33,099 bases of DNA from Thermoanaerobaculia bacterium (GCA_036001185.1 DASYUP010000440.1:1-33099), one strand, 5' to 3'; shown: positions 1,967 through 21,809, numbered from the stretch's first letter. Notes: generated by a model not told the origin, from the sequence alone. Program-made: numbers and translations.

Positions 1967-2015
1967 AGGTTGGGGACCGGCGGCACGGTGCACCGGGGCC
2001 GGCCCCGAGCGGCGA

Positions 2016-2044: not shown

Positions 2045-2090
2045 GGCGGCCGGCCCGGGCGCGCGCTCGACCCCGTGGCAGACTCCATCC

Positions 2091-2462: not shown

Positions 2463-2497
2463 AGGCCGCTCGGCCGCTCTGACGGGAGTGGGCGATC

Positions 2498-2764
2498 TCA
2501 ACGCCGAGATCGACCGGCGCCGCCGACGCGCAGCAGGCAGCGCACGCCCCCCTCGCGCTCCTCCATCGCCAGCACCTCGTGCCCCTCGCGCGCGCACCAG
2601 GCGGCGAGGTCGAGCCGCATCAGGGGATCGTCGCCGAGCACTTCGAGCAGCGCCCCCGGCGCCAGGCGGCGCACCCGCCGCTCGGTGCGCAGCACCGGCA
2701 CCGGGCAGAGCGTGCCCCTGACGTCGAGGCGCTGCGGTGTGGCGTTGGCCGGCGCGTCGGACAT
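2498..2764 (-). CDS. TusA/SirA-like sulfur-carrier protein (~88 aa)
   Basis: The active-site motif LDVRGTLCPVPVLRT (CPxP) is followed by the typical LEVLGDDP segment. I prefer the ATG at 2764; an alternative GTG lies at 2770. Confidence 0.8.
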   Translation of the reverse strand: MSDAPANATPQRLDVRGTLCPVPVLRTERRVRRLAPGALLEVLGDDPLMRLDLAAWCAREGHEVLAMEEREGGVRCLLRVGGAGRSRR

Positions 2765-2875
2765 CCGCACATCACTCTAATAGGATCGCCAGGAGCGACT
2801 CCGCAAGAATCGAGAAGCCGTCGCGGCCGTTGCCGCGCTAGCGTGGCCTGCGCACCCATAAGGGAGGAGGGAGCC

Positions 2876-3445
2876 ATGAAGACAGTCGTCCTCGCCGCCC
2901 TCGCCGGCGGCCTCGTCATGTTCCTCACCGAGTCGGTCACCCACATGATGACGCCGCTCGGCGAGGCTGGGATCCGCAATCTGCCCAACGAAGATGCGGT
3001 GCTGCCCGCCTTGCGCGCCAACGTGCACGAGCCCGGTTTCTACATGTTCCCCGGCATGGACGCGCAAGCGAAGACGCCGGAGGGGCAAAAGGCATGGCTG
3101 CAGCGCTACGTCGCCGGGCCCACCGGGCTGCTCATCTATCACCCGCACGGCGAGCAGCCGATGACGCCGCGGATGCTCGGCATCGAGCTGCTCACCGACA
3201 TCCTGGCGGTCCTGATGGCAGCCTGGGTCGCCACCCACGGCGCCACCTACTGGCGCCGCGTCGCCATCGTCGCCTCCTTCGGCCTCGCCGCCTGGTTCTC
3301 GATCGAGGTGAGCTACTGGGACTGGTACGGCTTCCCGGCGGCGTACACCCTGGCGCAGCTCGTCGACCAGGTGGCGAGCTTCGCGCTCGCCGGGCTAGTG
3401 GTGGCGAAGATCGTGCGGCCGCGGGCGATGGCGGCTGCGGCCTAG
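2876..3445 (+). CDS. Hypothetical 4-TM membrane protein (189 aa)
   Basis: The internal ATG at 2876 is preceded by AAGGGAGGAGGGAGCC (strong SD). Four hydrophobic segments. The upstream part of ORF 2579..3445 is Arg/Ala/Pro junk antisense to the TusA-like gene. Confidence 0.7.
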   Translation: MKTVVLAALAGGLVMFLTESVTHMMTPLGEAGIRNLPNEDAVLPALRANVHEPGFYMFPGMDAQAKTPEGQKAWLQRYVAGPTGLLIYHPHGEQPMTPRMLGIELLTDILAVLMAAWVATHGATYWRRVAIVASFGLAAWFSIEVSYWDWYGFPAAYTLAQLVDQVASFALAGLVVAKIVRPRAMAAAA

Positions 3446-3448
3446 GTA

Positions 3449-3547
3449 CTTGCCCCCGAGAGGGCGACCTCGTCATTGCGGAGCGGAGCGACGAAGCAAT
3501 CTCGCCGCCGCAACGTCGAGATCGCTTCGCTGCGCTCGCGATGACGA
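3449..3547. repeat. REP/MITE-like palindromic element, copy 1
   Basis: The core at 3466-3547 (gacctcgtcattgcggagcggagcgacgaagcaatctcgccgccgcaacgtcgagatcgcttcgctgcgctcgcgatgacga) is nearly identical to 24889-24971. The two arms are imperfect inverted repeats (gtcattgcg...aatctcg / cgagatcgc...cgatgac). It lies between convergent genes and starts 3 nt after the stop at 3445. Confidence 0.85.
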
Positions 3548-3568
3548 GGGCGCGCGGCTGATGCCGGC

Positions 3569-5935: not shown

Positions 5936-5975
5936 GCGGCGTGCGGGGCGGCACTGTACCAGCTACAATGTCCAT

Positions 5976-6794
5976 GTGCCCCCCAGGCCTCGCCGTCTCG
6001 CCGCGGTGTGCTGCGCCCCGGCGGCGCTCGTCCTCGCGCTGCTCGCCTCCCCCGCGGCCGCCTGGAACCCGACCACCCAGGTGGCGATCGCCCGCACCGG
6101 CGCGCACATAGCGCCGCCCGATCTGGCGCGGCAGATCGAGAAGCGCACCGACCGCTTCCGCGAAGGGGTGCTCGCCCCGTTCTCCGAGGGCATGCCGGAG
6201 CGCCACTACCGCAACCGCGACCGCGGGGTGCTCGACAAGACGCTCGCCGACGAGGTGGCCGGTGCCATCGCCGCCCTGCGCCGCCCGGCGCCTTTCGACG
6301 AGATCGTCTACCGCCTGGGCCGCGTCGCCCACTGGGTGGCCGACGCCAACAACCCGCTGAATGCGGCGGGCGACGACCCCGCCGAGGGGCGCTACTTCAC
6401 CGACTGGCTGCGCTACGCCGACAGCGCGCGGCCACGCTTCGCGCCGGTCTTCTACGCCGGCGAGCCGGTGGTGGACAGCGCGCGCGACCTGCGCTCGCTC
6501 GTCGGCCGCACGCTGCGGCGTGGCCGCGAGCTCTACCCGCTGGTGGGCGACGAGTACCGGCGCATCGACTTCAGCGCCGGCGCCGACGGCTTCGACGACC
6601 GCTCGACGGCCTTCGGCGTCGCCGCGGTGTCGTTCAGCCACGCCGTCTCCGACCTGGCGCAGGTGCTGCGCTACGTGTGGATCGCCGGCGGCGGCGCCGA
6701 CCCGCGCACGCAGCTGTGGGCGTCGCCGCCCGAGCTGCTGCTGCTGCCCAGCAGTCAGAGCGCCGGCCCGCTCACCGGGGCGCCGCAGCGCTGA
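5976..6794 (+). CDS. Secreted protein with degenerate S1-P1 nuclease / zinc phospholipase C-like motifs (272 aa)
   Basis: Signal peptide VPPRPRRLAAVCCAPAALVLALLASPAAA|W. The mature N-terminus WNPTTQVAIA compares with W-x4-H-x2-(I/V)-A of the fold, and AHWVADANNPLNA compares with H-F-x-G-D-x3-P-L-H. The start is uncertain: GTG at 5976 (a TACAAT box ends 6 nt upstream) or ATG at 5934. Confidence 0.55.
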   Translation: MPPRPRRLAAVCCAPAALVLALLASPAAAWNPTTQVAIARTGAHIAPPDLARQIEKRTDRFREGVLAPFSEGMPERHYRNRDRGVLDKTLADEVAGAIAALRRPAPFDEIVYRLGRVAHWVADANNPLNAAGDDPAEGRYFTDWLRYADSARPRFAPVFYAGEPVVDSARDLRSLVGRTLRRGRELYPLVGDEYRRIDFSAGADGFDDRSTAFGVAAVSFSHAVSDLAQVLRYVWIAGGGADPRTQLWASPPELLLLPSSQSAGPLTGAPQR

Positions 6795-9156
6795 GCGGCC
6801 CGCCCGCCGGTCTGGCTGCGCGCCGCGTCCGCTCGATCGCCAGCAGCGACAGCAGGACGCCGGCGGCCGCCAGCGCGAGACCCCACCTCCAGCCGGCGGG
6901 ACGGTAGTCGAGCCGCACGCGGTGCCGTCCCGGCGGCGCCACGAAGCCGAGGAAGCCGCCGTTGACGCGGAGCGCCGGCACCGGCTCGCCGTCGATATCG
7001 ACGCGCCAGCCGCGTGCGTGGCTGACGCTCGAGGCCACGAGGCAGCCGCCGGGCGACTCCACCTCGAGACGGAAGCCGTTGGCGTCGATGCGGCGCAGGA
7101 CGACGCCGCCACCGACCTCCGCCTCGCGCCCCGGCGCCGCCGCGAGCGGCCGCTCGACGACGGCGAGCGCGGCGAAGTCGCGATTGGCGGCGGCGTGAGC
7201 AATGGCCAGGGACTGGCTCGCCACCACCTCGACGCGGCGCGGAGCGAAGAAGAGCGGCAGCGCCGCCCGGTTCTCCCACAGGCGGTCGCTCCCCCGCTGC
7301 CACACGGGCCGCCAGGGCGCCGGCAGAGGGAGGGCCCGGTCGGCGAGCAGGTAACGCACACCGAGGTAGTCGAGGGCCGGCTGCGCCGGCGGCTCCCCGC
7401 CGCCGCCCGCGGCCACGACTGCACCGGGCTGGAGCAGCGTCAGGAATCCCTCGCGTGGTGACTGCCAGGCGCGCGCGAGCACCTCCTGCGGCGCCCAGGG
7501 GGCCATCGGATCGTAGACCCGCGCGTCGGCGAGCCCGTAGAGAGCGGCGAGGTTGGGCAACAGGGCCGGCCCGACGGCAGCGACGCGGAACGGCGGCGCA
7601 CCCCGTCGGGCCGCGAGCAGCCGCGCCACCGCCGGCGGCGCGCCGAGGTCCTCGTCCCCCGGCACCAGCGGATTGAAGCGCACGCCGAGCAGCAGCAGGT
7701 CGAGGAGGGTGAGCGAGACGATCACCGCCGGAAAGGCCCGCCGCGCCCGCGGCACCAGCAGCGTCGCCGCGGCGACAGCGCAGCCCGGGACGGCGGCCAC
7801 CCACCAGAGCCGCTGCCAGAGCGCGCGCTGCGGCGGATAGAGCGTGCCGAGGACGGCGGCGACGAGCAGCGCGCCGGTGGCGAGCCACCGCCCGCGCCGC
7901 TCGGCGGGCAGCCGCTCGAGCGCCAGGCCGGCAGCCACGGCGAGGGCCAGCACCGCCAGCAGGCGCAGCCGCGGCAGCTGCAACAGCCGTAGCAGCGGCA
8001 GGTGGTGGACGACGGCCGCCAGCGGCGGCCAGCCGAAGGCGACGGCGAGCGCCACCACCCCGGCCAGCGCCCACCCCCGCCCGCGCCCGCCGGCGAGGCC
8101 GCCGGCGAGAGCCACCGTCAGGGCAGCGAGCCCGATCCAGGCGGTGCAGAGCTCGCTGTAGTTGGCGGGGGTCCACCACCAGTTGTCGTCGCGCGGGCTG
8201 CCGAAGGCCAGCGGGTCCACCAGCACGCGCAGCTCGACGCCGTGCCACTCGCGCAGCGGCGCGGCGCCACCCAGCGAAGCCAGCAGCACGCCACGCTGGC
8301 TCTCGGGGGCCGCCTCGACGAACGGCAGCAGGCCCGGCGCGGTGAGCAGCCCGACGAGCAACGCGGCGAAGCCGAGCCGCGCCGCGAAGCTCCCGCGTGC
8401 CTCTCGCGTGGTCACCAGCAGCGCGGCGGCGAGCAGCGCGGCAGCGAGGGCCGTCTGCAGCAGGCTCTCCGGATGGCCCGCGAGCGCCGCGCCGGCCCCA
8501 CAGGTCACCAGCGCCGGCAGCGCGTGCCGCTGCCGGCGGTGCAGCGAGACGATCCCCAGCAGCACCCCCGGCAGCCATGCGGCCGCCATGCCCATCGGGT
8601 AGTAGGCCCAGACGACGAGGAACGACGAGAGCCCGTAGCCGACGGCGGCGAGCGCGGCGCCCGCCGGCCCGGCGCCGAGCGACCGCAGCAGCGCGTGCGT
8701 CAACAGCAGGGCGAGCAGCATCTGCCAGGCGGCAGTGACGGTGAGGGCGCGCACCGGCGGCAGGGGCGATGCCAGCAGGTGGAGCGGCGCGAAGGCCGCC
8801 GACTGGCCGTTGCCGAGCAGCGGCTGGCCGCTGCTCAGCTCGTGCGCCCACAGCGGCGCCCGCCCGCGCAGCAGCCGCTCGCGCACCAGGGCGCGGAAGG
8901 GCACCATCATCATCGGCACGTCCGAGAGCAGCTCGTTGCGCGGCCGCTCGGGCGGCGGTCGTGTCTCCGACCAGGGGCTGCGCGCGTAGGCGACGTCGCT
9001 CGCCACCTGCAGCGCCGGCGTCAGGAGGGCGCCACCGAAGAAGCCGCCGGCGAGCAGCAGGTAGGCGCCGGCGGCACGCCAGCTCGGCGCCGGCTGCCAG
9101 CCGCGGACGAGGGCGGCGAGCAGGGCGCCGCCCAGCGCGAAGACGACGACATCCAT
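6772..9156 (-). CDS. YfhO-like polytopic membrane protein (794 aa), paralogue 2
   Basis: Shares long strings with 3569..5935: MMVPFRALVRERLLRGRAPLWAHELSSGQPLLGNGQSAAFAPLHL, and the C-terminal RVNGGFLGFVAPPGRHRVRLDYRPAGWRWGLALA. Same architecture. Confidence 0.7.
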   Translation of the reverse strand: MDVVVFALGGALLAALVRGWQPAPSWRAAGAYLLLAGGFFGGALLTPALQVASDVAYARSPWSETRPPPERPRNELLSDVPMMMVPFRALVRERLLRGRAPLWAHELSSGQPLLGNGQSAAFAPLHLLASPLPPVRALTVTAAWQMLLALLLTHALLRSLGAGPAGAALAAVGYGLSSFLVVWAYYPMGMAAAWLPGVLLGIVSLHRRQRHALPALVTCGAGAALAGHPESLLQTALAAALLAAALLVTTREARGSFAARLGFAALLVGLLTAPGLLPFVEAAPESQRGVLLASLGGAAPLREWHGVELRVLVDPLAFGSPRDDNWWWTPANYSELCTAWIGLAALTVALAGGLAGGRGRGWALAGVVALAVAFGWPPLAAVVHHLPLLRLLQLPRLRLLAVLALAVAAGLALERLPAERRGRWLATGALLVAAVLGTLYPPQRALWQRLWWVAAVPGCAVAAATLLVPRARRAFPAVIVSLTLLDLLLLGVRFNPLVPGDEDLGAPPAVARLLAARRGAPPFRVAAVGPALLPNLAALYGLADARVYDPMAPWAPQEVLARAWQSPREGFLTLLQPGAVVAAGGGGEPPAQPALDYLGVRYLLADRALPLPAPWRPVWQRGSDRLWENRAALPLFFAPRRVEVVASQSLAIAHAAANRDFAALAVVERPLAAAPGREAEVGGGVVLRRIDANGFRLEVESPGGCLVASSVSHARGWRVDIDGEPVPALRVNGGFLGFVAPPGRHRVRLDYRPAGWRWGLALAAAGVLLSLLAIERTRRAARPAGGPLSAAAPR

Positions 9157-9283
9157 GGGACCGACCGGTGGGCGCGCAATCTACCATCGGCGTCGTCGCC
9201 CAGCCCGCTGGTACACTCCCCCGCCACCCTGCGGCCGGCCCGTCGCACGGCCGCGGCTCACCACACCCCGGAGGCTCCCCTCG

Positions 9284-10849
9284 ATGCTCCCAGCCCGTCG
9301 CGCGCTGCTCTCGGTGTCGGACAAGACGGACCTCGCCGGCTTCGGGCGCGGGCTCGTCGAGCTCGGCGTCGAGCTGCTCTCTACCGGCGGCACCTACCAG
9401 CACCTCGCCGCCGCCGGTGTGCCGGTGACCAAGGTGGCCGCGGTGACCGGCTTCCCCGAGATCCTCGACGGGCGGGTGAAGACCCTCCACCCGCGCATCC
9501 ACGGCGGCATCCTCGCCGACCGCAGCAAGCCGGCGCACCTCGCCGCGCTCGCCGAGCACGGCATCGAGCGCATCGACCTGGTGGCAGTCAACCTCTACCC
9601 GTTTCGCGAGACCGTACGCGACCCGGCGACGACGCTCGAGGCGGGCATCGAGCAGATCGACATCGGCGGGCCCACCATGGTGCGGGCGGCGGCGAAGAAC
9701 TTCGCCGGCGTGGCGATCGTCGTCGACCCCGCGGACTACCCCGCCGTGCTCGCCGCCCTGCGCGCGGGCGGCGGCGTGGTGCCCGAGCCGCTACGCCGCA
9801 CCCTGGCCGCCAAGGCCTTCGCCCACACGCAGAGCTACGACGCCGCCATTGCCCGCTGGCTGGGTGAACGCGCGGCGGCGCCGGCGGACGCCGGCGGCGA
9901 CGGGCCGTTCCCCCAGCATCTCGAGGTCTCGCTCGAGCGCGAGATCCTGCCGCGCTACGGTGAGAACCCGCACCAGGCCGCGGCGGTCTACCGCCTGGCC
10001 GACGGGCCGGGGCTGCTCGGCGGCATGCGGCAGCTGCAGGGCAAGCAGCTCTCCTGGAACAACGTGCTCGACGCCGACGCGGCGCGCCGGCTGGTCTCGC
10101 TGTTCGAGGCGCCGGCAGTCGTCATCGTCAAGCACAACAACCCCTGCGGCGTCGGCATCGGCGGCACCCTCGTCGAGGCCTACGAGCGCGCCCTCGCCTG
10201 CGACCCGACGTCGGCCTTCGGCTCGATTGTCGCCACCAACCGCGACGCCGACCTCGATTTCGTGGCGGCGATGAGCAAGCTGTTCGTCGAGGTGCTGGTG
10301 GCGCCGGGCTACGGCGAGGAAGCACTAGCGAAACTCGCGCCGAAGGAGAACCTGCGCGTGCTCGCCTGCCCGTTGCACGCCTGGCGCTCCGGCACCATCG
10401 AGCTGCGTGCCGTCGACGGCGGCTACCTGGCTCAGGAGCCCGACGACGCGCCCGAGGATCCCGCCACCTGGACCTGCCCGACGAGGCGGCAGCCGAGCGC
10501 GGCGGAGCGCGCGGCGCTGGAGCTCGCCTGGAAGGTCGTGCGCCACGTCAAGTCCAACGCCATCGTGCTCGCCAACGAGCACCAGACGGTGGGCGTCGGC
10601 GCCGGCCAGATGAGTCGCGTCGACTCCTGCCGGCTGGCGGTCGAGAAGGCGCAGTTGCCGGTGGCGGGAAGCGTGGCGGCCTCGGACGCGTTCTTCCCCT
10701 TCAGGGACGGTCTCGACGTCCTCGCCGCCGCCGGCATCACCGCCGTGGCGCAGCCCGGCGGCAGCAAGCGCGACGACGAGGTGATCGCCGCCGCCGACGA
10801 GCGAAGGATGGCCATGCTGATCACCGGCCGGCGCCACTTCAAGCACTGA
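9284..10849 (+). CDS. purH: Bifunctional AICAR formyltransferase / IMP cyclohydrolase
   Basis: MLPARRALLSVSDKTDLAGFGRGLVELGVELLSTGGTYQHLAAAGVPVTKVAAVTGFPEILDGRVKTLHPRIHGGILA ... VAQPGGSKRDDEVIAAADERRMAMLITGRRHFKH. The ATG at 9284 follows GGAGG (9270-9274). Confidence 0.95.
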   Translation: MLPARRALLSVSDKTDLAGFGRGLVELGVELLSTGGTYQHLAAAGVPVTKVAAVTGFPEILDGRVKTLHPRIHGGILADRSKPAHLAALAEHGIERIDLVAVNLYPFRETVRDPATTLEAGIEQIDIGGPTMVRAAAKNFAGVAIVVDPADYPAVLAALRAGGGVVPEPLRRTLAAKAFAHTQSYDAAIARWLGERAAAPADAGGDGPFPQHLEVSLEREILPRYGENPHQAAAVYRLADGPGLLGGMRQLQGKQLSWNNVLDADAARRLVSLFEAPAVVIVKHNNPCGVGIGGTLVEAYERALACDPTSAFGSIVATNRDADLDFVAAMSKLFVEVLVAPGYGEEALAKLAPKENLRVLACPLHAWRSGTIELRAVDGGYLAQEPDDAPEDPATWTCPTRRQPSAAERAALELAWKVVRHVKSNAIVLANEHQTVGVGAGQMSRVDSCRLAVEKAQLPVAGSVAASDAFFPFRDGLDVLAAAGITAVAQPGGSKRDDEVIAAADERRMAMLITGRRHFKH

Positions 10850-13329: not shown

Positions 13330-15258
13330 CTACGGCGTGTTGCGCTCGTTGAGGATGGCGAGGGTGATGGTCGCCTGGTCGTCACCGAGGACGTAGCTGT
13401 TGGTGAGGTGCATGCTGGCGTTGGCGACGCCGCCCTCGGCGATGTCGAAGTTCTGCACCTGGTTGTCGTCCTCGTCGTCGCCGCCGCAGTCGTCGCTCTC
13501 GAACATCTTGCCGCGCACCTCGGCGACGACGCTGGCATCCGTCGGGTCGAGGGTCACCCGCACGTCGGTCTCCACCCGCACCTCGTCGCCGGTGCAGTTG
13601 GAGAAGTGGAAGTGGTGCTCGCGCTGGCCTGGATCTAGGACCACCGAATCTTCGAGCGAGTGGGTGCCGATCTCGTCGGAGCCGATGTTCTCGTAGTCCT
13701 TGATCCACACCGTGCCGCGCACGGTCACCCGCCGGTGGGCGCGGGAGTTGTCGGGCCGCGGCGGCGCCACCGGCGCCGTGAGGGTGAGGGTCAGCGCGTT
13801 GCCGGGGCCGGCGTGGACGTCGAAGGTCTGCAGGGCGGTGACCTCGCGCGGCGAGCCGGACTCGATCACCGTCTTGCTCGCCCTCACCTCGTAGCGGCCA
13901 CCGGGAAGCGCGATGAAGGCGGCGTGACCCGCGGCGTCGGTGAGCGCCGCCGGGAAACCGGAGATCGTCACCAGCGCGCTGGCTGCCGGGCTGCCACCGA
14001 AGAGGGTGGTGACAGTGACGTCGCCCGCGCCGGGGCTCTCGCCCCAGCGGTGGACGCGGGTGTATTCGCCCGGGCGGTAGGCCATGTCCTCGGCAAGGCC
14101 GTAGACCCCGGCCGGTGGCAGGTCCCAGCGGGTGAGGTCGTCGGGTGAGACGGCGATGCCGTCGCCGGGGTGCTTCCAGCGGTCGGAGTCCTTGGCGTCG
14201 GGCTCGCCGTCGAAGGCCATTCCCGGCTCGCTGCCGCACCAGTCGAAACCGAAGCAGTTGAGGATCTGGTTGGCGCCGTCGTCGGGGGCGTCGGTGAACA
14301 GGCGCCCCCACCAGCCGGACTTGGCGTAGAAGTCGTTGTAGATCTTCGTGTAGAAGAACTCGCCGGCCTGCTGTCGGTTGGCCTCGGGATAGACGAAGAG
14401 GCCGCGATGCGGAGCCGGCGCGTGCGGGCGATCCCCGCCCTCGACGGTGTCGTCCTCCACCGGCACGCCGGCCGCCACCGTCGAGCTCCAGGCGAGCTGC
14501 GAGCAGACGGTGCCGTCCGGCGCGTTGAGGTTGGCCCAGCCGGCGTCGGAGCCGGCGCGAGCGCCGGGGCCGGACCCGCGGCCGACGATGGCGGCGTCGC
14601 TGTAGGCGAAGAGGCGGTAGTGCCCGTGGATGGCCAGCGCCGCGTCGGCGATGCGCTGGAGGTTGGCGCGCACGGTGCGGCCGGTGCCTGGCACCACGGT
14701 CTCCTCCTGGTCGAAGGGGGGCTTCACCACCGCCGGATAGATCGGCGGCGCCTCCTCGTCGCAGCCCGCCGGATCGCGGTTGAACGACTTGAGGAGGTAG
14801 GTGCGACCGGGGTTTTCGGGATCGATCAGGTAGTGGCCCTCGTAGGCCTCGTCGATGCTCTCGGTGACGGTGCCCGGCCAGCCGAACTTGAGCACCGCGG
14901 GGGTGAAGCCGTCACTGCCGGCGGCATCGATGTAGCGCTGGTCGGCGGCGGTGGAGTGGCGCACGCGGGTGCCGTTGTCGACGATGACGCCGGAGTGCGA
15001 GTAGCGCTGGTTGGCGTCGACGTGGCGCAACAGCTCGCCGATGGTGCCGCAGCCGGGGCTGACGAGGAGGTTGCCCTTGGTGGCGTTGGCGATGTACGGA
15101 AGGCGGTAGTCGAACTCGTCGGTGGCCTGGCAGCTGATGCCGGGGCGCGGCTCGAATGCTCCCGGCGTGCAGATCTCGCCGAGCGGTTGGGGCTGGCTGG
15201 CGCGCGCCGCCAGCAGCAGGCAGGCGGCGAGCACGGTGGTGGTGGTGGTGGGTCGCAT
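13330..15258 (-). CDS. Secreted multidomain protein: permuted papain-like (YiiX/C92- or NlpC/P60-like) domain + CarboxypepD_reg-like domain + C-terminal beta domain (642 aa)
   Basis: Signal peptide MRPTTTTTVLAACLLLAARA|SQ. GNLLVSPGCGTIGELLRHVDANQRYSHSGVIVDNG (His codon 14995-14997) is followed about 160 aa later by DGTVCSQLAWSS (Cys codon 14503-14505). That His-before-Cys order is what circularly permuted papain-fold amidases show. ALPGGRYEVRASK is CarboxypepD_reg-like. The ATG at 15258 overlaps the upstream stop (TGATG); an alternative GTG lies at 15261. Confidence 0.6.
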   Translation of the reverse strand: MRPTTTTTVLAACLLLAARASQPQPLGEICTPGAFEPRPGISCQATDEFDYRLPYIANATKGNLLVSPGCGTIGELLRHVDANQRYSHSGVIVDNGTRVRHSTAADQRYIDAAGSDGFTPAVLKFGWPGTVTESIDEAYEGHYLIDPENPGRTYLLKSFNRDPAGCDEEAPPIYPAVVKPPFDQEETVVPGTGRTVRANLQRIADAALAIHGHYRLFAYSDAAIVGRGSGPGARAGSDAGWANLNAPDGTVCSQLAWSSTVAAGVPVEDDTVEGGDRPHAPAPHRGLFVYPEANRQQAGEFFYTKIYNDFYAKSGWWGRLFTDAPDDGANQILNCFGFDWCGSEPGMAFDGEPDAKDSDRWKHPGDGIAVSPDDLTRWDLPPAGVYGLAEDMAYRPGEYTRVHRWGESPGAGDVTVTTLFGGSPAASALVTISGFPAALTDAAGHAAFIALPGGRYEVRASKTVIESGSPREVTALQTFDVHAGPGNALTLTLTAPVAPPRPDNSRAHRRVTVRGTVWIKDYENIGSDEIGTHSLEDSVVLDPGQREHHFHFSNCTGDEVRVETDVRVTLDPTDASVVAEVRGKMFESDDCGGDDEDDNQVQNFDIAEGGVANASMHLTNSYVLGDDQATITLAILNERNTP

Positions 15259-16847
15259 CACTGGATCTCCCAGCCGCGGCTGGTGCGGCGGATCTTGCCG
15301 CGGCGCTCGAGGTGGTAGAGATCTTCCTGCGTCACCGTGGCGCCGCGTACGAGACCGCGCCGGTTGAGGTCGAGCAGGAAGGTGCGGGTGGCCGCATCGC
15401 TCACGTGCCGGCGCAGCGCCGGGTTGTCGCGCACCTCGAAGTAGAGGCTCGCGTAGGCCGGACGGCCGCTCTGGCTGGTGCCGATGAGGTGGTAGCCGAC
15501 GTTGCAGACGCCCGGCGGGATCTGCGTCACGTCGAGGGTGAGGAACCCCTGGTGAGTGGTCTCGGCGGGGATGACGACCACTCCCGAGAGCGGCGTGGCG
15601 GGACCCGATCCGCCGGTCCCTCCGGTGCTGGGAACCGGCGCTCCCAACCCGCCGGCGCCGCCGAGGGGCAGGGCCGCGCCGTGACCGCTGCTGGCGTCGA
15701 GCAGGCCGAGGTCGCGCCGCGTGGGGCCGGTGCCACCGGGGATGCGCGGCGGGACGACGATGGCGTCGGCGGGCAGCCCCGGCAGGCTCCGTCGCAGCTC
15801 GACGGTGGCCCGCAGGCTGGTGCTGAGGCGCGTCACGGGGATCGTCGTTGCCAACGCCTTGCCCCCCTGGAAGAGCACGCTGGCCGGCGTCGTCGCCGCC
15901 GGCGAGGCGGGGGCCTGCACGTCACAGGAGAGGTTCTCGACCAGCGCCCGCCGGAAGACCAGCGGCTCCTTCTCGAGGTTGCGGATGCGATAGGAACCGA
16001 CCAGGCGCAGGCCGCGCGACTCCATGGCGCCGCTGGTGATCGCCGGCGGCTGCAGGTTTCCCTGCCGCTTGGCGTGGTAGTAGTTGTTGGGCAGCGTCAC
16101 CGCATAGTGGCGGGCGACGCGCCGGCCCGCCGCGAAGCCCGTGGCCCGTGCCTCCCCGGTGACCTCGACGGCAAAGGTCTGGTAGGGCACCGCGCCGTCC
16201 ACGCGGTCGAAGTAGGAGTGCGAGACGTAAGGCTCGTGGGTGGTCGCGATGGCGCCGTCGTCGAAGCGCCAGCGATAGCCACTGAAGGTCTCCTTCAGCT
16301 CGGCGGCGTTGTCGAGGGTGAAGTCGACGGTGTACGGGTGATAGGGGTTGAAGCGGCTGCGCACGAGGATCGCCGGCTCGATTGCGCAGTCCCGCACCGG
16401 CACCTTCACCGTCTTGCTCTGCGACTGGTCGCCGCTGGTGGCAACGACCTGGATCAGCCGCGTCGACGGGTCGCCGAAGAGCTGCAGGTAGCGGTGGTCG
16501 CCGGAGTAGCCGTCGATGGCCACCGATACCCACTGGCCGCTGACCGGTGGCTGCGTCTCCACGGCGACCCTGAAGACCTCGCCGCGGCAGACGCCGTCGC
16601 GTTGCAGGTCCTTGCGCTTCTCGAGGTCGCGGCGGAGGGTGCGAGCGGCGGCCGCGGCGTCGGCCGGCGAGGGTGCCGGCAGCTTGGCGGCTGGCACGAC
16701 GGTGAGCCCGGTGAGCGGCTCGGCCTTGAGCGTCACCTTGGCGATGAGCCCCTGCGCCGCGGCGGCGCGGGGGTGGCCGGCGCCCAGCAGCCAGAGGAGG
16801 GCCGCCAGGGCGGCGACCGGCACGGTTGCTTTCGTCGTCGATCTCAT
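15258..16847 (-). CDS. Secreted PKD-domain-containing protein (529 aa)
   Basis: The internal ATG at 16847 is preceded by AGGAGA. Signal peptide MRSTTKATVPVAALAALLWLLGAGHPRAAAA|Q. PKD-like segment TVDFTLDNAAELKETFSGYRWRFDDGAIATTHEPYVSHSYF...YQTFAVEVT. The upstream 210 aa of ORF 15258..17483 is Arg/Ala junk that overlaps the next gene. Confidence 0.65.
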   Translation of the reverse strand: MRSTTKATVPVAALAALLWLLGAGHPRAAAAQGLIAKVTLKAEPLTGLTVVPAAKLPAPSPADAAAAARTLRRDLEKRKDLQRDGVCRGEVFRVAVETQPPVSGQWVSVAIDGYSGDHRYLQLFGDPSTRLIQVVATSGDQSQSKTVKVPVRDCAIEPAILVRSRFNPYHPYTVDFTLDNAAELKETFSGYRWRFDDGAIATTHEPYVSHSYFDRVDGAVPYQTFAVEVTGEARATGFAAGRRVARHYAVTLPNNYYHAKRQGNLQPPAITSGAMESRGLRLVGSYRIRNLEKEPLVFRRALVENLSCDVQAPASPAATTPASVLFQGGKALATTIPVTRLSTSLRATVELRRSLPGLPADAIVVPPRIPGGTGPTRRDLGLLDASSGHGAALPLGGAGGLGAPVPSTGGTGGSGPATPLSGVVVIPAETTHQGFLTLDVTQIPPGVCNVGYHLIGTSQSGRPAYASLYFEVRDNPALRRHVSDAATRTFLLDLNRRGLVRGATVTQEDLYHLERRGKIRRTSRGWEIQ

Positions 16848-16870
16848 GGGTGTGTCTCCTGGCGCCGCCG

Positions 16871-17527
16871 CTAGCGGCTGGCGCAAACCTGGTCGATCCA
16901 CAGCTCCTGGCCGCCGATGCGCAGCGTCGCCACCGGGCCGGTGAGCTTCAGGGTTCCCGTCTTGCCGTGCGCCGGCGGCGGCAGCGGTGTGGTGGCCACG
17001 GCCAGCGCCACACCGCCGATCGGCGTCGGCGCCGCCGCGAGCTCGCCGGCGTACAGCGGGCTGCCGTTGACGGCGAGGTTCTCCGCGCCGCCGAGGTCGA
17101 GAAAGCGCAGCGCCACGCGCGCCGGGCGGAAGCCGAGGGCGCGGAAGTCGAGCTGCACGTCGACGTTGTTGAGGCGCAGGCTCTGCCCGGCGGCGAACGG
17201 CCGCGGCGGGTTGACCACCGTCGCCACCTCGAAGGCGGTAGCGGCGTTCGCCGCCAGGTACTTCTCCACCGTCACCCGCACGCGCTGCGAGGTGAAGGCG
17301 AGGTCGCCGGGCGACTGCCCCACCGGCCTGCCGTAGCGCGTGCCGAGCAGCAGCGGCGGCTCGAAGTCGACGCAGACCACCGCCGGCTGCGGCGGGACGG
17401 GGAGGGGCGGTGGCTGGGGGCGAGGCTGCGCCGCAGCGGTGGCGGTGACTGCCGGTAGCCCGCTGCCCAGCAACCCCGCACACAGCACGAGCAGCAGCCC
17501 GCGGGATGTCGTTCGCAATGTCTTCAC
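16871..17527 (-). CDS. Secreted beta-rich hypothetical protein (218 aa)
   Basis: The GTG at 17527 is preceded by AAGGAGG plus 5 nt. Signal peptide VKTLRTTSRGLLLVLCAGLLGSGLPAVTATAAA|Q, then a Pro-rich linker and a beta-strand-like body (FLDLGGAENLAVNGSPLY). G/C third positions. No family recognised. Confidence 0.65.
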   Translation of the reverse strand: MKTLRTTSRGLLLVLCAGLLGSGLPAVTATAAAQPRPQPPPLPVPPQPAVVCVDFEPPLLLGTRYGRPVGQSPGDLAFTSQRVRVTVEKYLAANAATAFEVATVVNPPRPFAAGQSLRLNNVDVQLDFRALGFRPARVALRFLDLGGAENLAVNGSPLYAGELAAAPTPIGGVALAVATTPLPPPAHGKTGTLKLTGPVATLRIGGQELWIDQVCASR

Positions 17528-17582
17528 GGTCGCCTCCTTGTCAGGTGCCGGCGCCATCGCGGCGCCGAGCTCTGTCAGGGAA

Positions 17583-17609
17583 GGCGACGGTGCGGGAGGA
17601 AAGACAACA
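17583..17609 (-). promoter_or_regulatory. Candidate ECF-type promoter (TGTTG-N15-CGTCGCCT) upstream of the secreted-protein trio
   Basis: The minus strand reads caTTGTTGtctttcctcccgcacCGTCGCCTtccc, about 55 nt upstream of the GTG at 17527. The same 5-mer, the same 15-nt spacer length and the same 8-mer occur at 19477-19503. It sits in a locally AT-richer patch. Confidence 0.45.
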
Positions 17610-17622
17610 ATGCGGCCGGAAT

Positions 17623-18291
17623 CTAGCGGACGACGACTGCCGGCCCCAGCTCGACCCGGGCGCCGCGCGCCAGGGCGGCCGCGGCGTCGCGGTCGAGGTC
17701 GGCGGTGGGCGGCGGGAAGGGCTGCTCCCCGACCAGCAGCAGCGGCTGGTAGCTGCCCACCGCGTCGAGCGCCACGATGGCGCGCAGCGACCTGCCGCTG
17801 CGCACGCAAGGCTGGCGGTCGGCGCAGCGCAGCACCAGCTCGCGGTCGTTGCGGTAGACGCGCAGCTCGGCGTGCGCGGCGCCGCCGGTGCTGGCGACGA
17901 GCCGCAGCAGATCGCCCGGCCGGGCCTCGTCGCCGCGCAGGACGGCGGCGCCCCGCTGCACGTCGGCGCGCAGCGACACGCTGCCGAGGTCGCCTGCCGG
18001 GGTGCGGAGAAGCAAGAGGACGGCGAGCGCCGCGGCCAGCCCGGTGGCCAGCACCCAGGGGAGCCACCCTCGCCGCCGCGCCCGGCGGGCCTCGATGCGC
18101 CGCCAGACCTCGGCTTGCCAGCGTGGTGACGGGGCGAGATCGCCCTCCAGCGAGGCGATGCCGGCGCGCAGCCGCTCGTAGACCGCCCGCGCCTCAAGGC
18201 AGTCGGGGCAGGTGGCGAAGTGGTCGTCGAGCGGCAGCCCCTGCTCGATGCGCAGCAGCGCTTCCTCGGCGAAGCGGTTGCAGCGGCTCAT
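17623..18291 (-). CDS. Anti-sigma factor, zf-HC2 type, single-pass membrane protein (222 aa)
   Basis: MSRCNRFAEEALLRIEQGLPLDDHFATCPDCLEARAVYERL carries the H-x3-C-x2-C motif. TM segment WLPWVLATGLAAALAVLLLL. About 120 aa are extracytoplasmic. It lies directly downstream of the ECF sigma gene. The ATG at 18291 follows GGAG plus 9 nt; an alternative ATG lies at 18306. Confidence 0.75.
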   Translation of the reverse strand: MSRCNRFAEEALLRIEQGLPLDDHFATCPDCLEARAVYERLRAGIASLEGDLAPSPRWQAEVWRRIEARRARRRGWLPWVLATGLAAALAVLLLLRTPAGDLGSVSLRADVQRGAAVLRGDEARPGDLLRLVASTGGAAHAELRVYRNDRELVLRCADRQPCVRSGRSLRAIVALDAVGSYQPLLLVGEQPFPPPTADLDRDAAAALARGARVELGPAVVVR

Positions 18292-18298
18292 GGGTTGT

Positions 18299-18358
18299 CG
18301 CTCCATCTGGTGACGCTCAAGAGGGTGACGCTCAAGAGGGTGCCGCTCACGGGGTGAC
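18299..18358. repeat. Four tandem 15-bp units spanning the sigma stop codon to the anti-sigma start region
   Basis: Plus-strand units: cgctccatctggtga (18299), cgctcaagagggtga (18314), cgctcaagagggtgc (18329), cgctcacggggtgac (18344). The two middle units match at 14 of 15 positions and the outer units are degenerate. Confidence 0.8.
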
Positions 18359-18949
18359 GCCTCGCTCCTCGAGGCACCGGCGCAGCGCCGGCAGCGCCCG
18401 CGCCACGCGCGCCTGCAGCGTGGCGGCGCGCTCCCCCGACAGCTCGGCGATCTGCGGGTACGAGAGGTCGAGCTGGAAGCGCAGCAGCACCGCCGAGCGG
18501 ATGCGCGGCACCAGCTCCCGCAGACAGGCGGCGAGGGCGTCGGCGAGCGAGCGCGCCACCAGGCCGCGGTCGGCGCCGCCGCCGGGGTCGGGGCGCTCCG
18601 CCGCTTCGGCGAGGCGCCCGAAGCGCCGGCGCCGGCGACGGTCCATCTTCAGCAGGTCGAGGCAGCGGTGGCGGGCGATGCCGAAGAGCCAGGTGCGCAG
18701 CGAGGAGCGCCGGCCGAAGCCCGCCAGCGCCTCGTACGCCTGGACGAAGGTCATCTGGTGCGCGTCCTGCGCCAGCTCCTCGTCGTCGACCAGCTGCCGG
18801 CAGTAGCGATAGAGCGCCGCTCCATAGGCGCGCATGAGCAGGGTCAGCGCGGCCTCCCGGTCGGCACGCTCGAGCGCGGCGAGGGCCTCCCGCTCCGGGT
18901 CCCCGACCTCGCCAACGGGGTCCTGGCCCTCACCGGCCGTCGCGCTCAT
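18347..18949 (-). CDS. ECF-family RNA polymerase sigma-70 factor (200 aa)
   Basis: Region 2: LLMRAYGAALYRYCRQLVDDEELAQDAHQMTFVQAYEALAGFGRRSSLRTWLFGIARHRCLDLLK. Region 4 HTH: LSYPQIAELSGERAATLQARVARALPALRRCLEE. The ATG at 18949 follows GGAGG plus 6 nt. Confidence 0.9.
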   Translation of the reverse strand: MSATAGEGQDPVGEVGDPEREALAALERADREAALTLLMRAYGAALYRYCRQLVDDEELAQDAHQMTFVQAYEALAGFGRRSSLRTWLFGIARHRCLDLLKMDRRRRRRFGRLAEAAERPDPGGGADRGLVARSLADALAACLRELVPRIRSAVLLRFQLDLSYPQIAELSGERAATLQARVARALPALRRCLEERGVTP

Positions 18950-19052
18950 CGGCCGCCTCCGGCCGAGGAGGCCGTCACCGGCCATTGCCGCCGCGGGATC
19001 CATGGTCGCGCTCCTCGCTCGCCCCTGCTGGTGCCACCCGGCTCCGGCTCTC

Positions 19053-19439
19053 CTAGGGCAAGCCCTTCACCAGCGCCTGCACCGAGTCGCGCGGCGGAAT
19101 CGGCGGCGGCGGCAGCGGGCAGTCGGTGAAGCGCTCGTCGCAGCGGATCCCGCCCTGGCCGGGGGTCCAGCGACCCACCGGTTCGAGGCGATAGATCGTC
19201 AGCTCGCTGTCGGCAGGGAAGCTGGCCGACCCGGTCGTCACCGCCAGCTTGCCGCCTCCCCCCGCGGAGCCGCCCTTGCTCGCCGAGCCGAGGACGAGGA
19301 AGGCGCCGTCCGCGGGCTTCGCCGTCACCCGCACGGTATCGCCGTCGCGCTCGAAGGGCAGGTTCTGCTTGCTGCCGCTGCCGGCCACCGCGGCACCGGT
19401 GACGGCCGTGATCAGAGTGCTCAGCCAGTGAAACGTCAT
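19053..19439 (-). CDS. Small secreted hypothetical protein (128 aa)
   Basis: The ATG at 19439 follows GAGGAGG. The N-terminus MTFHWLSTLITAVTGAAVAGSGS is hydrophobic. It has a Gly/Ser linker, a beta-rich body and a Pro-rich tail (CPLPPPPIPP). Third positions are strongly G/C. Confidence 0.6.
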   Translation of the reverse strand: MTFHWLSTLITAVTGAAVAGSGSKQNLPFERDGDTVRVTAKPADGAFLVLGSASKGGSAGGGGKLAVTTGSASFPADSELTIYRLEPVGRWTPGQGGIRCDERFTDCPLPPPPIPPRDSVQALVKGLP

Positions 19440-19476
19440 GAGGTCCTCCTCTCGGTAAACCACCCTCTGAGGGTGA

Positions 19477-19503
19477 GGCGACGCCGGGGGCAGATTCGCA
19501 ACA
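19477..19503 (-). promoter_or_regulatory. Candidate ECF-type (autoregulatory) promoter TGTTG-N15-CGTCGCCT upstream of small secreted gene, sigma and anti-sigma
   Basis: The minus strand reads ccgTGTTGcgaatctgcccccggCGTCGCCTcacc, about 40 nt upstream of the ATG at 19439. It lies in the 69-nt gap after the CHAT gene. It matches the motif at 17583-17609. Confidence 0.45.
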
Positions 19504-19508
19504 CGGAG

Positions 19509-21809
19509 TCATCGCTCGAGCTCGGCACCGAAGAGCGCGAAGGGGGCCCAGGACGCCGGTGGCTCGCCGCGCGCGATGGCGGCCCGCTGGGCCCGCGCCA
19601 GGCCGGCCACCGGATCGGCCGCACCCCCTTCGCGGTAGAAGCGGAGCACGAAGTCACGCGCCACCGCATCGTCGACCGAGCGCAGCGAGGCAAGCACCGA
19701 GCGACTGCCGGCGGCGAGGAACGCCGCGGCGAGCGAGCCCCACATCTCGCGGCGCTCGCGGGCCGCCGAGGCGCAGCTCGCGAGCACCACCAACCGCGGC
19801 GCGATGCGGCGGCCGACGATCTCGCCGGCGCCGAAGTCGCGGTCGGCCAGCCGCAGCCACGGTCCGCGGGGCCCGAGGCCGCTGTGGGTGGCGAGATGCA
19901 GGAGCGAGGCCCGGGCGCCCGACGCGAGCTCGCCGGTGGTGGCCCGCTGAGCGGTGCGCACCGTGGCGTGGAGGAGCGGCCCCACGGCGAGGGCCTCGGC
20001 GGCCGCCGCCGGCAGGTCGGCGCGGGGGTCCGCCAGCACCAGCGCCGGCCCATAGGGGACCCCGGGGCGGGCGGCGATCGCCACCAGGGCGGTGAGGCTC
20101 GGTACGTAGACGACCGGGTGCTCCTCGACGAGGTAACGATCGCCGTGCCGCAGGGCGGCGAAGGCCACCTGCGCGAGGGCGCCGTCGGCGACGACGTAGA
20201 GCGGTGCGCCCGCGGCCGGCAACGCGCCGGCCGGCAGCAGCAGGTCGCCGAGGCTCGCCGCCAGCGCGCGGTCGTCGGGCCGCGCCTGCAACCGCTCGGC
20301 GAGGTCGCGAATCTCCCGCCGCGGCCGCGCCAGCCGAAGGGCCCGCACGCGGCCGCCGTGGACCGTCAGCAGCCAGTCCTCAGCGCCGGCCTCGAAGTAG
20401 GCGAGGCCGTGGCGGTCGCCGAAGGCGGCGAGGACCCGCTCGATCGGCTGCGGCGCCGCCACCGCCGAGGCGCCCATTGCCGGCAGCAGCGCGCGCAGTG
20501 CCTCGAGGCGGTCGGCCGCGCCCTCGGGAGCCTGGTCGGTCGCCACTTGCTGGCTTGCCGATGCCGCCTGGATGAAGGCGTCGAGCAGGGTGCGCGCCTG
20601 CGCCCGCTCCGCGGTCGCCAGCGCCGCCACGGCGCGCCCGCCACGCGCCTGCAGCAGGAAAAGCGACTCGAAGGGCCGCCGCTTGCGCTCGAGCAGCCAG
20701 GACTGCAGCTCACCGAGCTCGAGCTCGCGGCGCATCCCCTCGATCACGCGGGTCGAGCGCTCGTACGCCGCTTCCGCCGCCGCCGGGTCGCCGCGCGCCT
20801 CGGCGACGCGGCCGGCGAGCTGCTCGAGGTCCCACGCCCACTCGGGGACCGGCTCGCCGGCGAGCGCGCGCGCGACGGTTGCCGCGGCGGCATCGAGATG
20901 GTGACGGGCGAGCTCCACCGCGGCCTGGTAGTAGAGCAGCGCCGTCGGGCTGGCGCTGGCCTCGGCGTGCGCGCGGGCCGCCTGCAGGTGGCGCTCCGCC
21001 TGCTCCACCTGGCCGGCATCGAGGTAGGCCTCGACGAGGTCGAGGTGGGCGGAGCGCAGCGTGCGGTCATCGCCGCCGGCCGCCAGCTTCACCGCCTCCT
21101 CGAGCCGCATGGCGCCGAGCGTGGGTCGCCCCTCGGCCTTCAGCAGCAGCCCCTCGTTGACGAGGAAGCGCGCCCGCTCGAGCGGCGACTGCTCCCGGCG
21201 CAGGGAAGCCGCCATCTCCAGCGCGCGCCGCGCGCCGGCACGGTCGCCGACGTCGTAGAGCACGGTGTAGAGCCCCTCGGCGGCGCGCGCCTGCGCCTCG
21301 CGATCGCCGGCGCGCGCGGCGGTGGTGAACGCCTCGCTGGCGAAGCGCAGCGCCTCGCGGTAGCGCGAGTCCGCCCAGGCGAGATAGAAGAGACCGTAGA
21401 GGGCACCCGACATCGCCTTGGCGTCGCCCGCCCGGCGGGTCAGCGCTAGGTCGTGGCGGAAGTCGCGCTCCGCCAGGGCGAGCTCGCCGCGCTGCCAGTG
21501 GATCGAGGCGGTGAGGCTCCACAGGCCAGGCTCCCCCGCCGTGCCGGCGAGGCGCTTCACCCAGCCGAAGACCTGCTGCGGATGGCCGAGGTGGTACTGG
21601 GCCCGCGCCGCCGCCGCACCAGCGTGTGGCTCACCCTCGCGGCGGTAGACTTCCTCACAGCGGCTCGCCGCGCCGGCGTAGTCCTTCGCCTCGAGCAGCG
21701 CCGTGCAACCCGGCAGGCCCGGTTGGCGGCAGGCGCCCACACCCGGCAGGAAGCCCACCAGGGAGAGGCCGAGGAGAACGGCTGGGCGGTTCGAGCGGCG
21801 CGCGCGCAA
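19509..21809 (-). CDS. TPR-repeat CHAT-domain (caspase-fold) protease, predicted lipoprotein (766 aa)
   Basis: The TTG start at 21809 follows GGAGGGG plus 7 nt. N-terminus MRARRSNRPAVLLGLSLVGFLPGVGA|C (lipobox-like). The central part has TPR-like helical repeats (AEGLYTVLYDVGDRAGARRALEMA...). The C-terminal CHAT signature is LLHLATHSG (His codon 19884-19886) ... PRLVVLASCASA (Cys codon 19773-19775). Confidence 0.85.
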   Translation of the reverse strand: MRARRSNRPAVLLGLSLVGFLPGVGACRQPGLPGCTALLEAKDYAGAASRCEEVYRREGEPHAGAAAARAQYHLGHPQQVFGWVKRLAGTAGEPGLWSLTASIHWQRGELALAERDFRHDLALTRRAGDAKAMSGALYGLFYLAWADSRYREALRFASEAFTTAARAGDREAQARAAEGLYTVLYDVGDRAGARRALEMAASLRREQSPLERARFLVNEGLLLKAEGRPTLGAMRLEEAVKLAAGGDDRTLRSAHLDLVEAYLDAGQVEQAERHLQAARAHAEASASPTALLYYQAAVELARHHLDAAAATVARALAGEPVPEWAWDLEQLAGRVAEARGDPAAAEAAYERSTRVIEGMRRELELGELQSWLLERKRRPFESLFLLQARGGRAVAALATAERAQARTLLDAFIQAASASQQVATDQAPEGAADRLEALRALLPAMGASAVAAPQPIERVLAAFGDRHGLAYFEAGAEDWLLTVHGGRVRALRLARPRREIRDLAERLQARPDDRALAASLGDLLLPAGALPAAGAPLYVVADGALAQVAFAALRHGDRYLVEEHPVVYVPSLTALVAIAARPGVPYGPALVLADPRADLPAAAAEALAVGPLLHATVRTAQRATTGELASGARASLLHLATHSGLGPRGPWLRLADRDFGAGEIVGRRIAPRLVVLASCASAARERREMWGSLAAAFLAAGSRSVLASLRSVDDAVARDFVLRFYREGGAADPVAGLARAQRAAIARGEPPASWAPFALFGAELER

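Follow-up and report, generated by a model that had tools for sequence, protein, structure and literature searches.

A conserved four-gene module of Thermoanaerobaculia with an exported TPR-CHAT lipoprotein and an ECF sigma/anti-sigma pair, a candidate split counterpart of DdvA

Sigma factors of the extracytoplasmic function (ECF) type are held by co-encoded anti-sigma factors and are commonly freed by regulated proteolysis. CHAT domains are, to our knowledge, widespread in bacteria and poorly understood outside the CRISPR craspase and DdvA. The locus described here lies in a 33,099-bp stretch of a Thermoanaerobaculia (Acidobacteriota) metagenome-assembled genome (MAG), and brings together the genes for an exported TPR-CHAT lipoprotein, a small secreted protein, an ECF sigma factor and an anti-sigma factor. 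We refer to the whole stretch as the window and count all coordinates from its first letter. Among the closest described systems, DdvA of M. xanthus is a zinc-binding anti-sigma (ZAS) protein with a fused periplasmic TPR-CHAT domain, for which self-cleavage in the linker, ahead of RseP, has been proposed (PMC11506125). Fused DdvA-like proteins have been reported only in Myxococcota and in one Comamonas, and split versions are not described in that work (PMC11506125). In the type III-E craspase, the ECF sigma factor CASP-sigma/RpoE has an inhibitor, Csx30, which is cleaved by the TPR-CHAT protease Csx29 (PMC10028731). For the actinobacterial group ECF54, PMC8999054 (citing Huang et al. 2015) gives a conserved context of carboxypeptidase, subtilase and CHAT-domain proteins, and notes that proteolytic control has been proposed. 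A preliminary description of the window had stated that no characterised ECF pathway uses a CHAT protease; in view of these three systems, that statement is outdated.

Seven consecutive open reading frames (ORFs) run from 21809 down to 13330, all on the minus strand, with gaps of 69, 103, 55, 95 and 23 nt followed by a TGATG stop/start overlap. The re-derived ORFs agree exactly with the seven-gene layout and with each gap figure of the preliminary description, and the public annotation places the starts of the CHAT, small and anti-sigma proteins where we do. In transcription order, the products are the TPR-CHAT lipoprotein (gene 1), the small secreted protein (gene 2), the sigma factor (gene 3), the anti-sigma factor (gene 4) and three further secreted proteins (genes 5, 6 and 7). 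Related loci, designated by L numbers, were reached in three independent ways: through CHAT homologues, through sigma orthologues with one genome per GTDB species, and through gene-5 homologues in metagenomes. Their gene content was obtained from hidden Markov model (HMM) scans of six-frame ORFs.

About 20 distinct loci have an orthologous sigma factor, and all of them show the order CHAT-small-sigma-anti-sigma; the sigma orthologues in GTDB species representatives, too, sit in this order without exception (16/16). The four core genes are usually 3-10 nt apart or overlapping, and often translationally coupled, while the genes around the module differ completely between loci; one MAG carries two module copies. 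About 12 of the 20 loci (about 60%) have gene 5 behind the module, and about 8 lack it. Among these loci, genes 6 and 7 turned up in the window alone; even in the closest relative, L030, gene 5 is preceded by another secreted protein, of 1312 aa. With gene 5 at only about 12 of 20 loci and genes 6 and 7 at the window locus alone, the conserved unit is four genes, not seven. The association of CHAT, small, sigma and anti-sigma genes noted earlier is thus a conserved envelope signalling module with its order kept at about 20 loci, whereas a single module of all seven genes does not survive the comparison, genes 6 and 7 being in addition an independent family. Gene order in relatives is accordingly conserved for the core four, but only partly for gene 5 and not for genes 6 and 7.

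Co-directional clusters with short gaps are common, and genes 6 and 7 are indeed unrelated passengers, as would be expected if the window held a generic ECF pair beside an unrelated exported protease and secreted proteins, neighbours without a common pathway. Set against this are the gene order, kept at about 20 loci despite wholly different flanks; a putative sigma promoter embedded in the CHAT coding sequence (see below); and the occurrence of distant CHAT relatives, at L007 and L009, beside ECF sigma genes of other types. The absence of any common pathway is very improbable on this evidence, and chance adjacency, being very unlikely, is effectively excluded. At L009, a CHAT gene whose product is 29% identical to that of the window is convergent with an ECF sigma operon of another type. 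At L007 (9967-16981), a CHAT-like protein with 34% identity that has lost the catalytic Cys adjoins an ECF sigma gene and a DdvA homologue, the latter a fused ZAS-transmembrane (TM)-TPR-CHAT protein of 1008 aa (PDB 8rot_B, E=3.5e-43). A 74-aa sigma-4-like fragment is encoded between the sigma factor and the DdvA homologue of L007.

The TPR-CHAT lipoprotein (gene 1, 19509-21809, minus strand, 766 aa) matches PF12770 (CHAT) with E=1.2e-35 over residues 516-761, at 123.8 bits against a cutoff of 24; its TPR matches in Pfam are weak. An alignment-based AlphaFold2 (AF2) model, with pLDDT of 89 and pTM of 0.86, consists of a TPR superhelix (residues 32-463) followed by a CHAT domain (467-761). A Foldseek search of the CHAT model against the PDB returned Csx29 as the top match (8eey_B, E=1e-15), together with the DdvA periplasmic domain (E~3e-14) and separase (E~6e-12), and the best TM-score among the matches was that of DdvA, 0.55-0.58. 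A phmmer search of the PDB with the window CHAT protein did not recover DdvA. The lipobox Cys27, encoded at 21729-21731, stands in the sequence ...LPGVGAC in the window and mostly in LLAGC or LLSGC in orthologues; it is kept in 89% of 79 full-length orthologues, a few of which have Gly instead. The CHAT match, the predicted fold and the lipobox bear out the earlier identification of an exported TPR-CHAT lipoprotein, and the orthologues, too, carry export signals.

Across these 79 orthologues, which show 49-71% identity, H638, H642 and C679 are invariant, and a Cys35/Cys51 pair is kept in 97-100%. The region containing His642 (codon 19884-19886) and Cys679 (codon 19773-19775) aligns with the dyad motifs of canonical CHAT proteins, so that the codon singled out in the preliminary description as that of the catalytic Cys is the invariant C679. 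The invariance of H642, C679 and surrounding residues argues that catalysis has been kept. A different role for the protein would be that of a non-catalytic, ligand-binding sensor or shield, sitting alone or with the small protein on the immunoglobulin (Ig)-like periplasmic domain of the anti-sigma factor described below, and blocking a site-1 or site-2 protease until signal-induced dissociation. Such a role has a parallel in DdvA, whose bulky periplasmic domain has been proposed to block RseP sterically and whose active site is incomplete, and free CHAT-like paralogues beside the L007 DdvA homologue (P0086 and P0087, with a membrane-anchored paralogue among these) have lost the catalytic Cys. 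In the window family, however, His642, Cys679 and many surrounding residues are invariant in 79/79 orthologues, and a purely steric function is in our view quite unlikely.

The ECF (group IV) sigma factor (gene 3, 18347-18949, minus strand) is 200 aa long, or 218 aa from an alternative ATG at 19003. It matches Sigma70_r2 (7.4e-13) and Sigma70_r4_2 (2.5e-7) in Pfam, as well as TIGR02937 (2.9e-21, over cutoff), in agreement with its earlier identification as an ECF sigma factor; no NCBIfam equivalog reaches its cutoff, the best being PRK12513 with 81 bits against 206. Its orthologues are 60-70% identical to the window protein. The partner is a zinc-binding, single-pass anti-sigma factor (gene 4, 17623-18291, minus strand, 222 aa) whose family has at least 171 members, annotated as 'hypothetical'. 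Residues C4, H24, C28 and C31 are invariant in 86 aligned homologues and form a predicted CHCC zinc site of the kind described for DdvA. The AF2 model (pLDDT 83, and >90 in the beta-sandwich) contains a helical anti-sigma domain (ASD) at residues 6-74 (helices 6-16, 24-48 and 58-74), a TM helix at 76-95, a disordered, low-confidence linker (96-105), and, on the periplasmic side, a highly conserved Ig-like beta-sandwich (106-222) whose C156 and C162 are invariant. Foldseek with this model gave only generic Ig-, PKD- and carbohydrate-binding-module-like matches, none below E=1e-3, and no specific fold family. Sequence searches of the PDB with the CHAT protein, the anti-sigma profile, the gene-5 profile and gene 7 were uninformative, their yield being TPR proteins and noise such as an Fab and the MS2 coat protein.

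The preliminary description had called gene 4 a zf-HC2 single-pass anti-sigma factor. The CHCC site, ASD, TM helix and periplasmic domain uphold the architecture, but not the family name: there was no match to zf-HC2 (PF13490) at E<=0.1, and NCBIfam NF052375 'antisigma' was matched with E=4.4e-5, at 23.6 bits against a cutoff of 100. Adjacency, and translational coupling in the orthologues, suggest that the anti-sigma factor binds and inhibits the co-encoded sigma factor. In the window the two genes are 55 nt apart, and a 15-nt tandem repeat (GGTGACGCTCAAGAG) in 3.5 copies (18309-18360) spans the end of the sigma gene and the spacer; since orthologous loci have a 4-nt stop/start overlap at this place, the gap reflects a local tandem duplication. 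The nearest relatives of the pair outside Acidobacteriota were found in a Myxococcales MAG (L027, 1-4500), with a sigma factor 43% identical and no TPR-CHAT gene. There, a SLOG cluster2 protein is encoded ahead of the pair and, behind it, a Peptidase_C14 caspase of 270 aa (E=3e-11) that has no signal peptide, a further caspase-fold neighbour in a possible conflict-system context.

Inspection of the intergenic regions revealed a conserved ECF-type promoter motif, TGTTG[TC]-N14-CGTCGCCTC, with two copies in the window, both on the minus strand. The copy in the anti-sigma/gene-5 gap, P_ECF2 (TTGTTGT-N14-CGTCGCCT, 17575-17609), lies about 45 nt 5' of the gene-5 GTG. Its exact pattern occurs once in the window, against 0.01 occurrences expected by chance, and L001, L003, L016, L018 and L026 each have it a single time, at the corresponding position; in L001, L003, L018 and L026 the element precedes gene-5 homologues. 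A position weight matrix (PWM) was built from P_ECF2-type sites and used to scan 724 kb of loci with a score cutoff of 17. This recovered P_ECF1 (GTGTTGC-N14-CGTCGCCTC, 19469-19503, score 31.9) as the second window copy, directly after the CHAT stop codon and about 30 nt 5' of the small-protein ATG, and L005 has the same element in the same place. Besides the expected positions, only two sites reached a score of 17 or more over the 724 kb, before signal-peptide proteins in L017 (with HEFGHxxxxxH) and L020. Among loci retrieved independently via gene 5, the motif was found directly 5' of gene 5 in L031, L033, L034, L036, L040, L042, L044, L046 and L049, and one probable false match was located inside a gene of L055. 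In L016, it precedes a 159-aa secreted Cys-rich protein (9316-9795) which replaces gene 5, repeats the pattern GMHAC...G.HVG.N.L.C three times within its sequence, and falls in no known family. The genes 3' of the motif copies all encode signal-peptide proteins.

In 16 main-clade loci, where the CHAT and small genes nearly abut, a variant of the element, CGTGTTGCGAT-N11-[CT][AT]GTCGCCT, is embedded in the last 30 CHAT codons, in the stretch encoding QRVAIGRGQSP. Comparison of 14 such CHAT genes, whose proteins are 60-88% identical, revealed that 8% of 200 degenerate codons for invariant residues are identical throughout. Only four codons ending in A or T are at least 90% conserved in the whole CHAT gene, and three of the four (CGT, GTT and CCT) fall inside the motif. 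In the window and L005, the CHAT coding stretch is without the motif, and the element is found in the enlarged intergenic gap. The conservation of rare T-ending codons within the motif, together with the move of the element into the gap in the window and L005, is strong evidence at the sequence level for a DNA-level function kept 5' of the small gene.

In its CGTC -10 element and its spacing, the motif is similar to ECF promoters, those of DdvS (GTAA-N16-CGT) among them. A reading of the motif on the opposite strand was rejected, as neither an AAC-type -35 nor a CGT-type -10 is then placed correctly and the element points away from the downstream genes. Within the cluster, consensus scans detected neither a sigma-70 promoter nor a convincing terminator, and an Rfam search detected no RNA element. 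From position and conservation, the module's own sigma factor is the probable user of both promoters. P_ECF1 would then drive the small-sigma-anti-sigma unit, amounting to autoregulation, and P_ECF2 probably drives gene 5, with genes 6 and 7 read through (23-nt gap, 1-nt overlap). The CHAT gene, lying 5' of the sigma-dependent units, would not depend on the sigma factor for its expression, in keeping with a constitutive sensor or protease. Within the 20 nt before the CHAT start, 16 loci (among L001, L003 and L011-L026) have TGnCATCAT or GATAAT exactly 7 nt 5' of the ATG, which suggests an extended -10 element and a leaderless or near-leaderless mRNA; the window differs from these 16 relatives, having GGAGG and a TTG start. 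In place of a single transcription unit, as the cluster had first been seen, the conserved promoters delimit CHAT, small-sigma-anti-sigma, and gene 5 with genes 6 and 7. The earlier proposal that the downstream secreted proteins are the output of the sigma factor gains from the ECF-type promoter directly 5' of gene 5.

The small secreted protein (gene 2, 19053-19439, minus strand, 128 aa) has an N-terminal hydrophobic signal or anchor, and its gene sits between those for CHAT and sigma at every locus. Alignment of orthologues revealed a conserved C-x5-7-C-x-LPPPPPP motif close to the C-terminus. Secretion, assumed in the preliminary description, is backed by a clear signal peptide in most orthologues, but the signal is weak in the window protein and absent in L005. 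The protein has no Pfam or NCBIfam match and belongs to no known family, and a word-indexed homologue search retrieved one relative only. Its gene is tandemly duplicated in L012 (6640-7976) and L019 (6774-7971), and in L019 a short CHAT-like fragment lies between the two copies.

Gene 5 (16871-17527, minus strand, GTG start) encodes a 218-aa protein with a signal peptide and conserved Cys residues near both ends (VCVxFE...GGQELWIDxVCA). It has no Pfam or NCBIfam match, and comparison of its profile with the PDB was uninformative. In a different lineage (L052-L055), a 971-aa TPR-CHAT protein (Pfam CHAT, 3e-53) is encoded directly upstream of an 819-aa secreted protein, for example at 1833-4748 and 4870-7329 of L055. 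The 819-aa protein consists of four tandem gene-5 domains and a type IX secretion system (T9SS)/FlgD_ig C-terminal tail. At these loci, CHAT and the gene-5 domain are linked in the genome a second time, independently of the module. No sigma domain was matched by HMM at L052-L055; a putative sigma-like ORF beside the L055 CHAT gene is without a Pfam match and was not used as evidence.

The arrangement at L052-L055, where another TPR-CHAT gene stands directly 5' of a gene for a protein with four gene-5 domains and no sigma factor is matched, raises the alternative that CHAT is a processing or maturation protease for the small protein, gene-5-domain proteins and other output proteins. It would then take no part in sigma activation, and the sigma/anti-sigma pair would sense its cue otherwise and merely regulate the substrates or partners of the protease. 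The small protein, whose gene always adjoins that for CHAT and is often translationally coupled to it, would fit such a substrate. Yet CHAT is there at all module loci whereas about 8 of the 20 are without gene 5, the CHAT gene lies 5' of the candidate sigma-dependent promoter and hence is not itself part of the output, and the fusion of TPR-CHAT to an anti-sigma factor in DdvA and L007 argues for a direct link between the two. A role confined to processing is therefore unlikely.

The pathway that we propose instead is a split DdvA-like one, in which the CHAT lipoprotein controls the anti-sigma factor, most likely by cleavage; we give it about an even chance of being correct. Because TPR-CHAT and anti-sigma are fused in DdvA and in the L007 homologue, the free CHAT protein and the anti-sigma factor of the module can be argued, from gene fusion, to work together. 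In this pathway, the CHAT lipoprotein, made independently of the sigma factor, would sense an envelope or extracellular cue via its TPR superhelix and inactivate the anti-sigma factor from the periplasmic side, most likely through a cut made in trans within or close to the disordered linker that joins the TM helix to the Ig-like domain. The sigma factor would next be freed by intramembrane proteolysis. Free sigma factor would transcribe the small-sigma-anti-sigma unit, for positive autoregulation and re-synthesis of the inhibitor, and also the lineage-variable genes for secreted proteins, in the window gene 5 and, probably by read-through, genes 6 and 7. The small protein might modulate the protease or serve as its substrate, like securin or RseB. 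Both the cleavage of the anti-sigma factor by CHAT and the role of the small protein are suggested by analogy with the known systems. In a narrower form, which we hold only tentatively and consider doubtful, the CHAT lipoprotein would be a dedicated trans-acting site-1 protease for the ZAS anti-sigma factor, and the small protein, induced by the sigma factor, would reset the switch as a securin-like inhibitor or adaptor.

Several points weigh against the split pathway. That CHAT cleaves or contacts the anti-sigma factor is something we infer, and for DdvA, too, cleavage is a proposal. Similarity between the window CHAT and DdvA-type CHAT is marginal (BLAST E=2e-4 over 49 aa), and the window sigma factor is about 28% identical to the partner sigma factor of the DdvA homologue, so the two systems are analogous or distantly related rather than orthologous. 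The gene-5 domain is tied to another TPR-CHAT protein at loci where no sigma factor was detected, which fits a protease-substrate relation with secreted proteins and not with the anti-sigma factor. As for the promoters, the motif is assigned to the module's sigma factor from its position, and its -35 element, TGTTGT, is without the AAC typical of ECF promoters.

Downstream of gene 5, gene 6 (15258-16847, minus strand) encodes a secreted 529-aa protein, and gene 7 (13330-15258, minus strand) a secreted 642-aa protein in which an N-terminal module of about 400 aa, the carrier of a conserved His84...Cys248-Ser249, stands before a CarboxypepD_reg-like domain. Long gene-7 relatives have an N-terminal half that is homologous to gene 6. 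Gene 6 matches 90 of the 150 best gene-7 homologues, upstream of the gene-7-like part, and both parts are fused there in proteins of 1000-1700 aa; on account of these fusions, the two genes represent a split form of a single secreted protein that is widespread. The split appears genuine, with no frameshift, as gene 7 has its own signal peptide. The gene-7 family comprises 637 representative clusters at 50% identity. Of the domains first named in these proteins, PKD in gene 6 was not confirmed: PF00801 (E=0.04) and PF18911 (E=0.044) both fell below threshold, leaving no significant Pfam match. The CarboxypepD_reg domain of gene 7 is sub-threshold in the window protein but over the cutoff in homologues. 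For the permuted papain-like fold suggested for gene 7, sequence searches of Pfam, NCBIfam and the PDB gave no match, nor did the C92 and NlpC/P60 profiles, but the order His84...Cys248-Ser249 is compatible with it. Across about 150 homologues, H84 is 100% and C248 88% conserved, and S249 and W253 are also conserved, a pattern that is compatible with the permuted order and not diagnostic of it.

The GC content at third codon positions (GC3) is 0.91-0.95 across all seven genes, so none of them is compositionally foreign, and a horizontal acquisition of genes 5-7, considered because of a shift in GC skew, was ruled out. The flanks are of housekeeping character, with a polyprenyl synthetase, PurH and two YfhO paralogues on one side, and KdsB, a SAM hydroxide adenosyltransferase, an M48 peptidase and NadE on the other. 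The polyprenyl synthetase gene (plus strand, ending at 13329) converges on gene 7 (ending at 13330) with zero bases between the stop codons, and no terminator-like structure was predicted at the 13329/13330 junction. The two YfhO-family paralogues, of about 800 aa, are encoded on the minus strand at 3572-5962 and 6775-9180, with a plus-strand ORF of unknown family between them, and a tRNA-Phe(GAA) gene is located at 1891-1966. No CBASS, CRISPR or other defence genes were found in the window, nor were Cas7-11/gRAMP, Csx30/Csx31 or a CRISPR array; PADLOC gave only a weak BovA-like match on the CHAT core. With this match alone and housekeeping flanks, a defence-system link of the window locus was ruled out.

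The four-gene architecture, the small protein, the Ig-like anti-sigma domain and the coding-embedded promoter were not found in the literature searched, although to speak of complete novelty would be an overstatement. If the narrower form of the split pathway is correct, it would be the first ECF pathway with the CHAT protease and the anti-sigma factor on separate polypeptides, and a tractable 'split DdvA' in which to settle whether cleavage by CHAT is what sets off signalling of this class. A natural split system makes CHAT-mediated anti-sigma cleavage directly testable in trans. The promoter motif can be used for regulon prediction in Thermoanaerobaculia genomes, and the variant within the CHAT gene offers an example of a promoter kept inside coding sequence by selection at synonymous sites.

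Among known systems, separase-securin resembles the module in combining a TPR-like superhelix with a CHAT/caspase fold, and a securin-like role for the small Pro-rich protein is conceivable by analogy. Separase is, however, eukaryotic and nuclear or cytoplasmic, and the small protein has no sequence relationship to securin. ECF54 shares the bioinformatic association of an ECF sigma factor with CHAT. It is actinobacterial and described without an anti-sigma factor (PMC8999054), whereas the window module has a canonical ZAS anti-sigma factor; CHAT is not mentioned in the main text of the ECF re-classification (Casas-Pastor 2021). The likeness to the sigmaE-RseA-RseB-DegS-RseP system of E. coli, and to PrsW acting on RsiW, lies in the proposed logic, in which a periplasmic protease trims a single-pass anti-sigma factor. 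A small periplasmic modulator encoded in the sigma operon, and a sigma factor that autoregulates, would be further points in common. In contrast to the PDZ serine protease of that system, the candidate site-1 protease here is a caspase-fold (CHAT) lipoprotein of the module itself, and the anti-sigma factor is of the ZAS type.

The craspase is similar in that a free TPR-CHAT protein acts in trans on a sigma inhibitor from the same locus, as is proposed here. It differs in being cytoplasmic and RNA-activated through Cas7-11, and Csx30 is a soluble protein, not a ZAS transmembrane one, whereas the window CHAT protein is an exported lipoprotein and the window holds no CRISPR genes. The closest parallel is DdvS-DdvA (PMC11506125, PMC6061681; PDB 8ROT, 8RW5, 8RLZ), with which the module shares a CHCC cytoplasmic domain, one TM helix, a flexible periplasmic linker, a periplasmic TPR-CHAT of the separase/craspase type with a His-Cys dyad, and an ECF sigma factor with a CGT(C) -10 promoter and autoregulation, the last being a prediction in our case. 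Unlike in DdvA, the TPR-CHAT is a separate lipoprotein, unfused in the window and at all of the about 20 orthologous loci; the anti-sigma factor has a small Ig-like periplasmic domain of its own; and the module always includes a further small secreted protein. The -35 elements differ, with TGTTGT here and GTAA for DdvS. There is no defence-island context at the window locus, and only a subset of DdvA-like pairs are near defence genes (PMC11506125). The window module, as read here, is thus one that works like DdvA-DdvS and stands outside that family, given the absence of the fusion, the marginal sequence similarity and the lack of a defence island. With it, CHAT-linked ECF signalling would extend from Myxococcota to Acidobacteriota, and outside defence islands.

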